Source: a virus. Taken from it: a stretch of 18,234 nt of DNA. Shown piece after piece: positions 13,028 through 16,800 of this stretch. The translations under genes were made by a program, and so were the position numbers. Position 1 is the first letter of the stretch; each line of letters begins with the position of its first letter. The notes beneath the pieces were generated by a model. The model searched no databases. It worked only from the letters and a program-made list of their open reading frames with translations, and had not been told where the DNA came from. The stretch is from the UHGV virus genome UHGV-0285855; one strand, 5' to 3'.

Positions 13028-13600
13028 ATGCTGATTGGGTATATCAGGGTGTCAACAAATGACCAGAATACGGCGCTACAGAGAAATGCGCTGGAATGTG
13101 CAGGATGTGAGCTGTTTTTCGAAGACAGAATAAGCGGTAAGACAAGGGAACGTCCCGGCCTTAAACGCGCATTAAAGCGACTCCGGCCAGGGGATACCCT
13201 GCTGGTCTGGAAACTGGATCGTCTTGGACGTAGTATGCAGCACCTTGTCCTTTTAACAGAAGAACTCCGGCAGCGCGGCGTTAACTTCCGCAGCATTACG
13301 GACAATATTGATACATCCACTCCCATGGGACGTTTCTTTTTCCATATAATGGGCGCACTGGCGGAAATGGAGCGGGAACTCATTATTGAACGTACACGCG
13401 CGGGTCTTGCTGCTGCCCGTGCTCAGGGGCGTCATGGCGGCAGACCTCAGAAACTGACAGGGAAAGAGCGGGAGCAAATCGCCCGTTTGCTGGCTAATGG
13501 CGAGTCCCGTAAACAAATCGCACTGATATTTGATATTGGCCTGTCCACCCTTTATCGTTATTTTCCTGCCTCACCGGCTCCGTCACCAAAAGTACCGTGA
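13028..13600 (+). CDS. gin: Serine-recombinase DNA invertase (Gin/Hin/Cin/Pin family)
   Basis: 190 aa; N-terminus MLIGYIRVSTNDQNTALQRNAL... with catalytic Ser in RVST; resolvase-type catalytic domain plus C-terminal helix-turn-helix (LSTLYRYF); AAGGAG 5-10 nt upstream of the ATG; adjacent to the invertible segment. Confidence 0.9.
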   Translation: MLIGYIRVSTNDQNTALQRNALECAGCELFFEDRISGKTRERPGLKRALKRLRPGDTLLVWKLDRLGRSMQHLVLLTEELRQRGVNFRSITDNIDTSTPMGRFFFHIMGALAEMERELIIERTRAGLAAARAQGRHGGRPQKLTGKEREQIARLLANGESRKQIALIFDIGLSTLYRYFPASPAPSPKVP

Positions 13601-13685: not shown

Positions 13686-15734
13686 ATGTCAGACTCCCAG
13701 TGGAAAATGCTCTCCGCCATGCCCGGAGAGTTTTCAGTCAAGGTTGCCGGTGGCACGGTGGCATTTATTGAAAGTCCTTTCCGGCCTTCGGGTAATAAAG
13801 GCGGGATCACCTTCGCAGACTGCGTGATCCGCTTCAGCACGAAAGAGCCATTATGGATAATGCCGGTATCAGGTAATCCCAGCGCAGAAATCACCAGTTC
13901 AGGCGTGACCGGTATCATTCCGATCACATCTGACGTGGCCGGAACACTCACACCTTCTGACTGGAGTGCACCGGATAACGCCGGATCTTCTGGTGGCACA
14001 AATGGCAGCAGTACAGAGCCGGAGTATTACTATGTGCTTCCACTGACCGGGCAGTCCAACGGGATGGCCTACGGTGAAGGGCTTCCGTTGCCGGATTCAT
14101 TTGACCGTCCTGAACCGCGCATTAAGCAACTGGCCCGACGCAGTACGGTAACGCCGGGTGGTGAAGCCTGTTCTTATAACGATGTCATTCCCGCAGACCA
14201 CTGTCTGCATGATGTGCAGGACATGAGCGGGATGAACCACCCGAAAGCTGATCTGGCAAAAGGCCAGTACGGGACTGTCGGTCAGGGGCTGCATATTGCC
14301 AAAAAACTGCTGCCTTATATTCCGCAGAATGCCGGGATACTTCTGGTTCCCTGCTGTCGTGGTGGTTCGGCATTCACCGCCGGGGCTGATGGCTCATTCA
14401 GTGAGGCCAGCGGTGCTTCCGCTGATTCTTCACGCTGGGGAGTTGGTAAACCCCTGTATCAGGACCTGCTCAGTCGCACCAGAGCGGCGCTGGCGAAGAA
14501 CCCGAAAAATAAACTTCTGGCTGTGGTATGGATGCAGGGAGAGGCAGACCTTGCTTCAGGAAGTCAGCAGCATAATGGTTTATTTACAGCCATGGTTCAG
14601 CAGTTCAGAACCGACCTGTCTCCGCTTGCTGCGCAGTGCGTGAGTGGAAATGCTGCCACGGTGCCGTGGATTTGTGGTGATACCACGTATTACTGGAAAA
14701 ACACGTATGCCACGCAGTATGAAACAGTCTATGGCGCATATAATAATCTGACCGCACAGAATATTTTCTTTGTGCCGTTCCTGACGGATGAGAATGGACA
14801 GAACACGCCAACGAATGCTCCGGCGGAAGACCCGGATATTGTGGCTGTCGGGTATTACGGTGCGGCATCCCGTACCCAGGGCAGTTTTGTCTCCACACAG
14901 CGTGACAGCCATTTCAGCTCATGGGCACGCAGGGGCATCATTTCTGACCGTCTGGCCTCAGCCATTCTGCTCCATGCGGGACGCACGGCTGAAGTTATGG
15001 GCGGACAGGCCGTGCCGCCGGATGAAAAACCATCCCCTGACACGCCATCAACGCCGTCAACGGACGGGAAATCAATGACGACGCTGTTTTCTTACCGCGC
15101 ATCGGAGTCAGGCGGAGCACTGACGCCACAGGGCTGGGGGGCGGAAGGCGGTAGTGCTGCTGTTGTGGATGATGTCGGTGCCAGCGGGGGCAAGGCGCTG
15201 AAGCTGACAAAACAGACCGGAAAGTCATGGTTTATGCAGCATGATGCCGGTAATGGTGCCGACCTGCTGGAAAAAGGTGGCCTTGTCAGCTGTCGTTTTA
15301 AACTTGATGGCGCGCTTACGGCTAATCAGTACGCACTGGCGCTGTACTGGCCGGTTTCTTCGCTGCCTCAGGGCGTCACACTGGAAGGTAATGCCGGCCA
15401 TAACCTGCTGGCATCGTTTTACGTTCAGAGCGATGCCACAGACCTTAACGTGATGTACCACAAGGGTAATCCAGACCAGAACACGAAGCTGGGTTCATTC
15501 GGTGCATTTAATAACGAATGGCATACGCTGGCATTCCGTTTTGCCGGTAACAACAGTATTGAGGTAACGCCGGTGATTGATGGACAGGACGGGACACCGT
15601 TCATGCTGTCGCAGTCTCCGGTAGGGACACTGGCGGCAGACAAGTTACGCCTGACCGATATCACCAGTAATGCAACGTATCCGGTACTGATTGACAGCAT
15701 TTTGGTGGAAGTGAATAACCCGTCAGCAGGATAA
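13686..15734 (+). CDS. Multidomain carbohydrate O-acetylesterase, SGNH/SASA (sialate-O-acetylesterase-like, NanS-like) family
   Basis: 682 aa; GQSN block at aa 122-125 (nt 14049-14060) in place of GDSL; WMQGEAD block; DSH near the C-terminal part of the catalytic domain; extra N-terminal (~115 aa) and C-terminal (~230 aa) domains. Confidence 0.65.
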   Translation: MSDSQWKMLSAMPGEFSVKVAGGTVAFIESPFRPSGNKGGITFADCVIRFSTKEPLWIMPVSGNPSAEITSSGVTGIIPITSDVAGTLTPSDWSAPDNAGSSGGTNGSSTEPEYYYVLPLTGQSNGMAYGEGLPLPDSFDRPEPRIKQLARRSTVTPGGEACSYNDVIPADHCLHDVQDMSGMNHPKADLAKGQYGTVGQGLHIAKKLLPYIPQNAGILLVPCCRGGSAFTAGADGSFSEASGASADSSRWGVGKPLYQDLLSRTRAALAKNPKNKLLAVVWMQGEADLASGSQQHNGLFTAMVQQFRTDLSPLAAQCVSGNAATVPWICGDTTYYWKNTYATQYETVYGAYNNLTAQNIFFVPFLTDENGQNTPTNAPAEDPDIVAVGYYGAASRTQGSFVSTQRDSHFSSWARRGIISDRLASAILLHAGRTAEVMGGQAVPPDEKPSPDTPSTPSTDGKSMTTLFSYRASESGGALTPQGWGAEGGSAAVVDDVGASGGKALKLTKQTGKSWFMQHDAGNGADLLEKGGLVSCRFKLDGALTANQYALALYWPVSSLPQGVTLEGNAGHNLLASFYVQSDATDLNVMYHKGNPDQNTKLGSFGAFNNEWHTLAFRFAGNNSIEVTPVIDGQDGTPFMLSQSPVGTLAADKLRLTDITSNATYPVLIDSILVEVNNPSAG

Positions 15735-15740
15735 AAAAAT

Positions 15741-15773
15741 GCCGCCGGTAAGGGAAAACAAGAAACCGGCGGC
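15741..15773 (-). terminator. GC-rich hairpin with a 7-nt T-run on the minus strand (intrinsic terminator for leftward transcription; weak for the plus strand)
   Basis: Stem GCCGCCGGT (15741-15749) pairs with ACCGGCGGC (15765-15773); A7 at 15732-15738 becomes U7 immediately 3' of the hairpin on the minus strand. Confidence 0.35.
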
Positions 15774-15867
15774 AAATGTCGTCATATCCAAAGCAAAACA
15801 TGCAGGACGATTTTTTAACCAACAGGTATTAACGATGTCAACACCATATCAATAACCGGGAGGGATA

Positions 15868-16050
15868 ATGACATTTTTACAGCTTATTTTATTGTATTTC
15901 TGCACGGTGGTATGTGTCTTATATCTGGTGAGCGGTGGTTATAAGGCCATCAGAAATTATGTTCGCCGCAAAATTGATGACGCAGCAGCCGAAAAGCTCA
16001 GTAAAACAGCGCAGGCAACTCCGCTCCCAAAAGACCCGACCCAGCCCTGA
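15868..16050 (+). CDS. Small membrane protein (single N-terminal TM helix), function unknown
   Basis: 60 aa; hydrophobic stretch LQLILLYFCTVVCVLYLVSGG; GGGAGGG 5 nt upstream of the ATG. Confidence 0.5.
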   Translation: MTFLQLILLYFCTVVCVLYLVSGGYKAIRNYVRRKIDDAAAEKLSKTAQATPLPKDPTQP

Positions 16051-16085
16051 TTGCAGGGCTTTATTCCCGCATAAGGAGGATATAC

Positions 16086-16340
16086 ATGCCAGAAATTAAA
16101 GGCACCGTCACTGAAGACCTGGTAAAACAGGCACTGTATTCCGGTGAAGTAAATAAGTTGCTGAAAGCGCAAGTCCGCAAGGATTTTGAGGCACAAATCG
16201 ACACTTACGTTGATGAAGTGCTGGCAAAACTTATTGGACCAGCTGCTGCGGCCAGTGATGCTGATAATGAGCCGAAAACCGAAGCACAGCCAGAACAACC
16301 AGACCCGGCTCAGCCCGGAACTGACAGCACCATGATGTAA
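16086..16340 (+). CDS. Hypothetical small acidic protein
   Basis: 84 aa; AAGGAGG 7 nt upstream of the ATG; followed by an intrinsic terminator. Confidence 0.5.
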   Translation: MPEIKGTVTEDLVKQALYSGEVNKLLKAQVRKDFEAQIDTYVDEVLAKLIGPAAAASDADNEPKTEAQPEQPDPAQPGTDSTMM

Positions 16341-16346
16341 CAATAC

Positions 16347-16379
16347 AAACCGGCAGTTTCTCCTGTCGGTTTTATTTTC
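16347..16379 (+). terminator. Rho-independent terminator
   Basis: Stem AAACCGGCAG / CTGTCGGTTT (one G-U pair), loop TTTCTC, followed by TATTTTC. Confidence 0.55.
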
Positions 16380-16415
16380 ATGGGCGCTTTATATACCAAT
16401 CAGAGGACGATAATC

Positions 16416-16616
16416 ATGGACAAGAATAAAAAGCAACCTGATACCAAAGGCCTGGAAATATTAAGCACAGAAATTATCAATGCGCTACGTTCAGGACTTG
16501 ATGAAGATACATTACAGGATCGAAACTTCACCACCGCAATGTGGATAGCTATGCAGATCCTGTGTACCCCAAGATGCGCTATTTTTGCGGTTCGTGAAGG
16601 TCAACTGACTCGCTGA
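16416..16616 (+). CDS. Hypothetical small protein
   Basis: 66 aa from ATG 16416 (GAGGA 8 nt upstream); the longer ORF from 16380 lacks a ribosome-binding site. Confidence 0.4.
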   Translation: MDKNKKQPDTKGLEILSTEIINALRSGLDEDTLQDRNFTTAMWIAMQILCTPRCAIFAVREGQLTR

Positions 16617-16732
16617 TTGCACGAATTACATCAGAAAATCAGGCGTTCCATAACTGCATAGCTGATGAATCACCTCCCTGAATCATTGTTGATGACTTTT
16701 CAATCTATTTGTTGTATCAATTAAACAAATCG

Positions 16733-16757
16733 AATCGATCGTTTTTGTCGATCGATT
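16733..16757. promoter_or_regulatory. GATC-containing palindrome upstream of com (candidate Dam-methylation-sensitive operator/promoter element)
   Basis: AATCGATCG-TTTTTGT-CGATCGATT: two copies of CGATCG, each containing a Dam site (GATC at 16737-16740 and 16750-16753), ~45-65 bp upstream of the com ATG. Confidence 0.4.
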
Positions 16758-16800
16758 AGGCGAGAAAGGTATCATCAACAAAGCAGGAGGTTATGCGGCC

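Follow-up and report, generated by a model that had tools for sequence, protein, structure and literature searches.

Small DUF1378 and DUF826 genes behind a NanS-p-type esterase in lambdoid and Mu-like prophages of Escherichia coli

In Shiga-toxin phages the esterase gene nanS-p is found downstream of Q, in the order Q, stx, nanS-p, small open reading frames (ORFs) and S, and its transcription rises by 1–2.4 logs (10- to 250-fold) upon treatment with mitomycin C (PMC10462455). The same paper of 2023 mentions in passing that DUF826 and DUF1378 ORFs are located between nanS-p and S. A preprint of 2026 shows that NanS-p of phage phi24B is a capsid decoration protein that is anchored by its N-terminal DUF1737 and processed (bioRxiv 10.64898/2026.04.10.717836). 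A further described system that matters here is the releasin gp25 of phage Mu, which has an N-out/C-in topology: 4 residues are periplasmic, the junction is RR/RK and the cytoplasmic domain is anionic (PMC9239132). Here we analyzed the virus genome UHGV-0285855, a DNA stretch of 18,234 nucleotides (the window, meaning the whole stretch at full length), which represents 18 kb from the right-hand side of a Mu-like transposable Escherichia coli prophage. A near-identical prophage is annotated in E. coli CI5 and shows the classical Mu order (repressor, transposase A/B, gam ... tail genes). The gene order in the window is gin, esterase, ORF1, ORF2, ORF3, com and a C5 cytosine DNA methyltransferase, and our subject is the three small ORFs in the middle. 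A sequence-only reading had described them as proteins of 60, 84 and 66 amino acids (aa), the first a single-pass membrane protein and the second acidic. We found all three as described, on the plus strand at 15868–16050 (ORF1), 16086–16340 (ORF2) and 16416–16616 (ORF3).

Two of the three proteins, of which that reading had recognized none, belong to catalogued families. ORF1 is a DUF1378 protein, matching PF07125 with an E value of 7.1e-35 and 119.4 bits (gathering cutoff 25), whereby residues 1–58 align with positions 1–58 of the 59 in the profile; its match to PHROG 494 (phrog_494) has an E value of 1.1e-34. ORF2 is a DUF826 protein, which matches PF05696 with its residues 1–55 on profile positions 1–56 of 75 (E 2.2e-15, 57 bits, gathering cutoff 25) and PHROG 311 (phrog_311) over the full length (E 1.1e-28). 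Both PHROG families are of unknown function. DUF1378 and DUF826 are already known, and annotations of E. coli genomes routinely include them. The gene ahead of them, at 13686–15734 on the plus strand, encodes a 682-aa NanS-p-type sialate O-acetylesterase with the Pfam domains SASA and DUF6645. Its residues 109–428 match E. coli NanS (PDB 3PT5) with E 6e-121, and residues 464–678 match the solved C-terminal domain of NanS-p (PDB 6YP6) with E 5e-95. Read along one strand, the window therefore holds a SASA/DUF6645 esterase, then DUF1378 and then DUF826. We are highly confident that these three genes form a phage cassette of fixed order, in which the esterase comes first and to which ORF1 and ORF2 belong under the family names given here.

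The same three genes in the same order constitute the nanS-p region of the Shiga-toxin phages. In the lambdoid and Shiga-toxin prophages sampled, which are VT2-Sakai and the E. coli and Citrobacter loci retrieved via seven DUF1378 alleles, we read the order Q ... (stx) ... esterase, DUF1378, DUF826, holin, endolysin and Rz. The order is the same for two holin families and for esterases with DUF1737 as well as those that lack it. A link of DUF1378 to a single holin family was rejected, as the gene occurs with Phage_holin_2_1, with Phage_holin_2_3 and also in the Mu-like prophage of CI5, where no holin gene is annotated. Between the window and the Shiga-toxin-phage region, the catalytic and C-terminal domains of the esterase are 55–87% identical, and both have an A-tract with a hairpin behind the stop codon of the esterase. 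The surroundings are different. No Q, stx or holin gene is nearby in the window, and the cassette is not in the Q-dependent late-operon site before the holin but is flanked by gin (13028–13600) and com. An intrinsic terminator closes it, and com and a DNA-modification gene come next. Indeed, every Mu-like E. coli prophage that we inspected (four others) has the same trio between gin and com. The DUF1378/DUF826 pair follows an esterase in every E. coli or Citrobacter context sampled, which does not agree with the variable-end status that ORF1 and ORF2 had been given.

The ORF1 gene is preceded by the Shine-Dalgarno motif GGGAGGG at 15858–15864 on the plus strand, 3 nt before the ATG. Its top 19-residue Kyte-Doolittle window scores 2.52 at residues 3–21, which indicates one transmembrane helix at about residues 4–24 and agrees with the proposed single-pass membrane protein. 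Only three residues stand ahead of the hydrophobic helix. The helix is followed by the basic juxtamembrane segment YKAIRNYVRRK, with 6 Lys/Arg within residues 25–45, and the tail carries a charge of +3.8. Because the basic stretch comes after the helix, the positive-inside rule predicts an N-out/C-in orientation. Across 14 DUF1378 homologues the positions L9, F11, V15, Y19, L20, G23, G24, Y25 and R29 are invariant; the membrane helix and the junction are conserved, and the tail is variable. One member of PF07125 is the 59-aa ORF between nanS-p and S in the phages 933W and VT2-Sakai, which has about 60 aa like ORF1. ORF1 and the lambdoid DUF1378 proteins share the conserved transmembrane helix and the GGY-basic junction at 55–72% identity, and both are encoded after a NanS-p-type esterase and before DUF826. 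ORF1 differs from them in the sequence of the tail and in its location between gin and com rather than before a holin. It has a transmembrane helix, and DUF1378 adjoins the holin gene in lambdoid prophages, though not in the window; a search of Pfam gave no match of ORF1 to any holin family.

ORF2 has its own Shine-Dalgarno motif, AAGGAGG, at 16073–16079 on the plus strand, so that both ribosome-binding motifs are located as reported. The protein is acidic as claimed, with an isoelectric point (pI) of 4.27 and a net charge of −8.5. AlphaFold2 places helices at residues 10–17 and 20–50, with a predicted local distance difference test (pLDDT) score >90 in residues 21–50 and <50 in the tail; the model thus predicts a long amphipathic helix (20–50) followed by a disordered, acidic, proline-rich tail. 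The tail varies in length and sequence among the copies, and its last two residues are always hydrophobic (MM, ML, LL or TL). Comparison of the model with the PDB gave no structural match, one long helix containing little information for a fold search. The lambdoid DUF826 proteins have the same design of helix, acidic proline-rich tail and hydrophobic C-terminal dipeptide, at the same place after DUF1378. In local tblastn alignments, ORF2 is only 36–45% identical to them, and the Mu-like DUF826 proteins form two subgroups of their own with 84 and 81 aa. A plain tblastn search of the phage database with ORF2 (E 1e-3) missed the lambdoid DUF826 copies, and profiles and a lambdoid query were used. 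An example of PF05696 is the C-terminal 81 aa of the VT2-Sakai protein 'orf43', whose conserved N-terminal helix region is the part matched by ORF2. The gene is followed, as the sequence-only reading stated, by an intrinsic terminator on the plus strand at 16347–16380, which consists of a 10-bp stem (16347–16372) and TTTTATTTTC (−14.0 kcal/mol, z −4.1).

We also noticed that orf43 of VT2-Sakai (locus L003, 4547–4966) and similar calls of 138–147 aa in the loci L010, L012 and L005 join the DUF826 frame to an out-of-frame stretch that overlaps DUF1378, giving proteins of about 139 aa. These fused annotations leave out the DUF1378 gene, and one of them is labelled 'head completion protein'. The conserved form of DUF826 has 81–101 aa and begins at an internal Met.

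Both genes are under constraint. Against diverged homologues, the pairwise ratio of nonsynonymous to synonymous substitution rates (dN/dS) is 0.17–0.24 for ORF1 and 0.09–0.16 for ORF2; these are codon-level comparisons with diverged copies, in which the synonymous divergence is reaching saturation. A lack of conservation in related elements was to have spoken against the three genes, and we found strong conservation. The phage database holds 309 records for DUF1378, 306 for the lambdoid-type DUF826 and 342 for the C-terminal domain of the esterase, with a near-equal breakdown by organism. Among 5,426 complete E. coli genomes, 233 carry ORF1 and ORF2 (>=80% coverage) and 229 carry the baseplate J gene of the lineage, the two numbers being compared as totals and not genome by genome. 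From these counts we conclude that the ORF1/ORF2 pair is a near-constant part of the Mu-like lineage and not variable cargo.

The identities between copies are mosaic. A search of the phage database at the DNA level (blastn) with the region returned only two Mu-like insertions inside Shiga-toxin phages; the lambdoid copies are missed because they are too diverged. At the protein level the esterase of the window (residues 98–682) is 86% identical to that of the lambdoid loci L013-16 and only 56% identical to that of the Mu-like locus L007, and ORF1 is only 62% identical to ORF1 of the lambdoid L013. L013 is near-identical to the window from the 3' end of the esterase gene through the intergenic region and into the first bases of ORF1, and the sequences diverge thereafter. 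Two Mu-like prophages have near-identical ORF2 and very different ORF1. Because of this mosaic pattern, we conclude that recombination cuts between and within the three genes and that the trio is always rebuilt. As judged from these alignments, the pattern shows that lambdoid and Mu-like phages exchange the cassette piecemeal by recombination.

Two lone copies of DUF1378 complete the picture. In phage BUCT709 (L004, 3501–3653) the start codon of DUF1378 overlaps the Rz stop codon, where a cassette of pinholin, endolysin of the signal-anchor-release (SAR) type and Rz-Rz1 ends, and neither an esterase nor DUF826 accompanies it. When species-representative genomes were scanned with a DUF1378 pattern, a single locus was obtained, in Cedecea. 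There, in Cedecea neteri (L020, 4797–4961), the gene comes after a tail-fibre gene and before a Dam-like methylase, again with no esterase or DUF826. Since DUF1378 stands alone in both cases, its function should be independent of the esterase.

The esterase itself shows one clear difference from lambdoid NanS-p. Its N-terminal ~100 aa (13686–13985) contain no DUF1737 and match only esterases of Mu-like prophages, so that the DUF1737 anchor is replaced by an unrelated domain of ~100 aa. The swap fits an exchange of the virion anchor upon the move of the cassette to another capsid, and by analogy the new N-terminus may be an alternative anchor for Mu-type particles. Directly after the esterase stop codon we find an A7 tract and a 10-bp G+C-rich hairpin (15735–15774; −20.1 kcal/mol, z −3.9). 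A U-run follows the hairpin on the minus strand only, and the structure looks like a terminator for leftward transcription within a rightward gene array. In another Mu-like element and in VT2-Sakai, the A-tract and the hairpin keep their position and form while the stem sequences differ, and in the lambdoid L013 the element is near-identical. A 38-aa ORF at 15739–15855 was rejected, as it overlaps the hairpin and is unannotated in sibling genomes.

What could the small proteins do? In our favored explanation, ORF1 and ORF2 are companions of the NanS-p cassette that are expressed in the lytic cycle and form a membrane-anchored basic/acidic pair acting at phage exit. To this explanation as a whole we assign a probability of roughly 50%. 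Of its parts, late expression of ORF1 and ORF2 seems probable; a role in lysis or egress is a tentative and rather unlikely proposal. The two genes would be co-transcribed with the esterase during the lytic cycle, with transcription stopping at the terminator behind ORF2. We take them as lytic-cycle genes because no promoter-like site precedes ORF1 and because the lambdoid copies are situated in the late operon, where the holin gene lies downstream of DUF1378/DUF826. ORF1 would be inserted into the inner membrane N-out/C-in, with ~3 residues in the periplasm and the basic helix at the cytoplasmic face. ORF2, an acidic protein, would reside in the cytoplasm, where its amphipathic helix could dock on the basic ORF1 tail. 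The membrane-tethered pair might then modulate inner-membrane events at exit, such as the timing of lysis or the release of SAR endolysins or holins. The endolysins encoded next to DUF1378 in VT2-Sakai and BUCT709, and also the Mu-like endolysin of CI5, have weakly hydrophobic N-termini of the SAR type.

Together, ORF1 and ORF2 would have the architecture of the Mu releasin gp25 (DUF2730) divided over two proteins. Both systems combine, as predicted for the pair, an N-out/C-in anchor that leaves 3–4 residues in the periplasm with a basic junction and a cytoplasmic part of negative charge, and both lie in the late region of phages that have SAR endolysins. Unlike in gp25, the anchor and the acidic part are two polypeptides, and in the window they are encoded outside the lysis cluster. 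A stricter version of this idea makes DUF1378 and DUF826 a two-protein releasin-like device, membrane anchor plus detachable acidic subunit, which would tune the firing of SAR endolysin or pinholin; the Mu-like copy would then be a second, horizontally acquired lysis-timing module. We regard this version as a long shot.

A number of observations weigh against a role of the pair at phage exit. No common ancestry with the releasin could be found: homology of DUF1378/DUF826 to DUF2730 was rejected at an hhalign probability of 0.3–0.4% versus the CI5 DUF2730 protein, and the Pfam search gave no DUF2730 match for ORF1 or ORF2. In all Mu-like copies the pair is ~25 kb away from the lysis genes, which lie upstream as read in the sibling CI5, and beside its SAR endolysin and spanin genes the lineage already has a DUF2730 releasin gene of its own (CI5). 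A position comparable to that of the releasin is held only by the lone DUF1378 of BUCT709, not in the prophage lineage of the window, and near the lone DUF1378 of Cedecea neteri there is neither an esterase nor a lysis gene. Transcription of ORF1 could be uncoupled from that of the esterase by the hairpin that separates them. A crude consensus scan found no sigma-70-like promoter upstream of ORF1 and promoter-like sites only inside ORF1, but such a scan is blind to Mu C-dependent and weak promoters. The putative contact between ORF1 and ORF2 is proposed from complementary charge and gene adjacency, and the literature searched, in which only two papers name DUF1378 or DUF826, contains no experimental data on them. 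The motif AATAACC, which resembles a half-site of the Mu C protein, was rejected, as it is too near the ATG and not conserved in sibling prophages.

ORF3 is of a different kind. It encodes a 66-aa helical protein of a small unnamed family with the motif NFxxAMW[IL]AMQxxCxP, and its start at 16416, behind the ribosome-binding site GAGGA (16403–16407), is the one annotated by NCBI in sibling genomes. A longer 78-aa version starting at 16380 was rejected, because this start is inside the T-run of the terminator and lacks a ribosome-binding site. Searches of Pfam, PHROGs, NCBIfam, PADLOC and PDB profiles gave no match for ORF3, and NCBIfam none for any of the three ORFs. Its close homologues are five clusters of near-identical E. 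coli sequences (word-index search of 5.8 billion clustered proteins), and it is present in 17 of the 5,426 complete E. coli genomes. The slot that it occupies, from the cassette terminator to the com promoter region, is in siblings either empty or filled with a minus-strand gene or with ORF3 and extra DNA. An exhaustive phmmer search of 1.8 billion proteins returned the close E. coli copies and three distant relatives (E ~3e-4, 33–36% identity). All three of these are encoded in other Mu-like prophages, between DUF1804 (Mu gp27-like) and the large terminase or portal genes, and this shared Mu-like context makes the weak homology credible. The dN/dS value is 0.05–0.42 among the close copies, which differ by few substitutions, and 0.15 versus a distant relative, so that ORF3, too, is under purifying selection. 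AlphaFold2 models ORF3 as a three-helix bundle (mean pLDDT 76.6), for which Foldseek found nothing significant (best E 2.8 in BFVD and 3.9 in the PDB). The top PDB matches, histone-fold chains with E ~4, were rejected as noise for a short helical model. Judged by these comparisons, ORF3 represents a small family of accessory genes that is specific to Mu-like phages and has a different position in this lineage. The earlier description of small genes at the variable end consequently stands in part: the three are real conserved genes of unknown function near the right end, of which only ORF3, with its 17 genomes, occupies a variable slot.

The best surviving rival to lytic-cycle companions of the esterase is that the small ORFs are lysogen-protective or counter-defence cargo, as the sequence-only reading had suggested. 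ORF1 would then be an inner-membrane superinfection exclusion protein, for example blocking DNA entry, and ORF2 and/or ORF3 would serve in anti-defence or host takeover. Small size combined with a single membrane pass or an acidic character is generally typical of exclusion and anti-defence proteins, yet none of 5,027 PADLOC models matched ORF1 or ORF3, and ORF2 gave a chance-level E of 0.048. With a strong ribosome-binding site and with the hairpin and the terminator on either side, ORF1 resembles an autonomous unit, but it has no promoter-like site in front of it, and only ~3 of its residues are predicted to reach the periplasm. The genes lie in a mosaic region of lower G+C at the prophage end, the lone DUF1378 of Cedecea is likewise at a prophage right end, after the tail fibre, and the slot of ORF3 is truly variable. 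ORF1 and ORF2 themselves are near-universal in the lineage and not variable, and their lambdoid copies directly precede the holin within the Q-dependent late operon, with low expression in the lysogen. We consider this possibility unlikely.

A second rival holds that ORF1 and ORF2 aid the folding, processing, virion attachment or release of the NanS-p-type esterase. This is supported by the near-perfect co-occurrence of the three genes, whose order is fixed in two phage backbones unrelated to each other and beside either of two holin families, and by the persistence of the trio in spite of recombination junctions between and within its genes; against this stand the DUF1378 genes of BUCT709 and Cedecea, which have neither esterase nor DUF826. 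Assembly factors are conceivable for the capsid decoration protein NanS-p of phi24B, which gets processed. Decoration and the reported autoproteolysis require no membrane protein, and the main text of the preprint names no protein from the genes after gp84; recombinant NanS-p is active alone according to the literature cited there (bioRxiv 10.64898/2026.04.10.717836). We find such a helper function quite improbable. Neither the defence nor the helper explanation has positive evidence, and both are weakened. That the ORFs are chance frames or decaying passengers hitch-hiking with the esterase, as their very short length, the lack of a known function and the rarity of ORF3 could suggest, is essentially excluded by the strong hidden Markov model matches of ORF1 and ORF2, by dN/dS well <1 over saturated synonymous divergence, by the conservation, from Mu-like to lambdoid copies, of start codons, ribosome-binding sites and lengths, and by the 13 invariant positions that the distant ORF3 relatives keep at 33–36% identity in the same kind of phage.

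The neighborhood of the cassette is as follows. The left part of the window contains tail and baseplate genes and an invertible tail-fibre segment. On the right, com (16801–16989, plus strand; PF10122 Zn_ribbon_Com, E 6e-13) is the boundary of the inserted region, and it overlaps the GTG start codon, at 16955, of a gene for a 350-aa C5 cytosine DNA methyltransferase (16955–18007, plus strand; PF00145, E 1.6e-42). The methyltransferase is in place of mom, the sibling prophages having com-mom. One Mu-like element has the same pair of com and methyltransferase (100% and 99.7% identical) but shows only 66% identity to the window in the esterase, 78% in ORF1 and 72% in ORF2. As the pair is near-identical while the cassette has diverged, the DNA-modification module at the right end swaps independently, and the swapped module possibly retains Com-dependent translational control. 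Upstream of com, at 16725–16760, we found the inverted repeat AATCGATCGACAAAAACGATCGATT with two GATC sites, which is reminiscent of the Dam/OxyR control of the Mu mom promoter.

The AT-richer stretch that had been described as an island is real in composition: positions 15780–16620 have 45.2% G+C, while the tail operon has 57.4% and the esterase 54.7%. It is not confined to the three ORFs. The lower G+C content also covers com and the methyltransferase as far as the end of the prophage (~18170) and is a mark of the whole accessory region at the right end. By comparison with two other insertion sites, we mapped the end of the prophage to ~18169–18171 (...TCGCCGCGCTA). A 58-aa ORF at 18026–18202 was rejected as a prophage gene, since it spans the junction at this end. 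An antisense ORF of 128 aa (15957–16343) was rejected as well, as it is unannotated in siblings and the selection pattern fits the frames of the plus strand. An Rfam scan of 15400–17100 gave no accepted RNA family; a match to STnc480 with 27 bits was below the threshold (cutoff 72) and was rejected.

In summary, the three ORFs are part of a real but ordinary phage cargo module, in which two catalogued families are found in their usual company together with a rare orphan gene. The functions in superinfection exclusion, anti-defence or host takeover that had been proposed for them gain no positive support from the PADLOC search, from the region before ORF1, where no promoter was found, or from the late-operon position of the lambdoid copies. 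Taken alone, the finding has little weight. Modest new points are that the cassette is shared and recombined between lambdoid prophages (Shiga-toxin and other) and common Mu-like prophages and that the anchor of the esterase is swapped; to these we add the releasin-like architecture proposed for the pair and the ORF3 family, which is confined to Mu-like phages. As fixed companions of the NanS-p esterase that are under purifying selection, DUF1378 and DUF826 are good and cheap targets for knockout in Shiga-toxin phages. If the pair does affect the timing of lysis, this would bear on the release of Shiga toxin. And if it were a releasin-like device, almost every Shiga-toxin phage would have it directly upstream of the holin, and the pair would co-determine the timing of lysis and of the release of toxin and virions.

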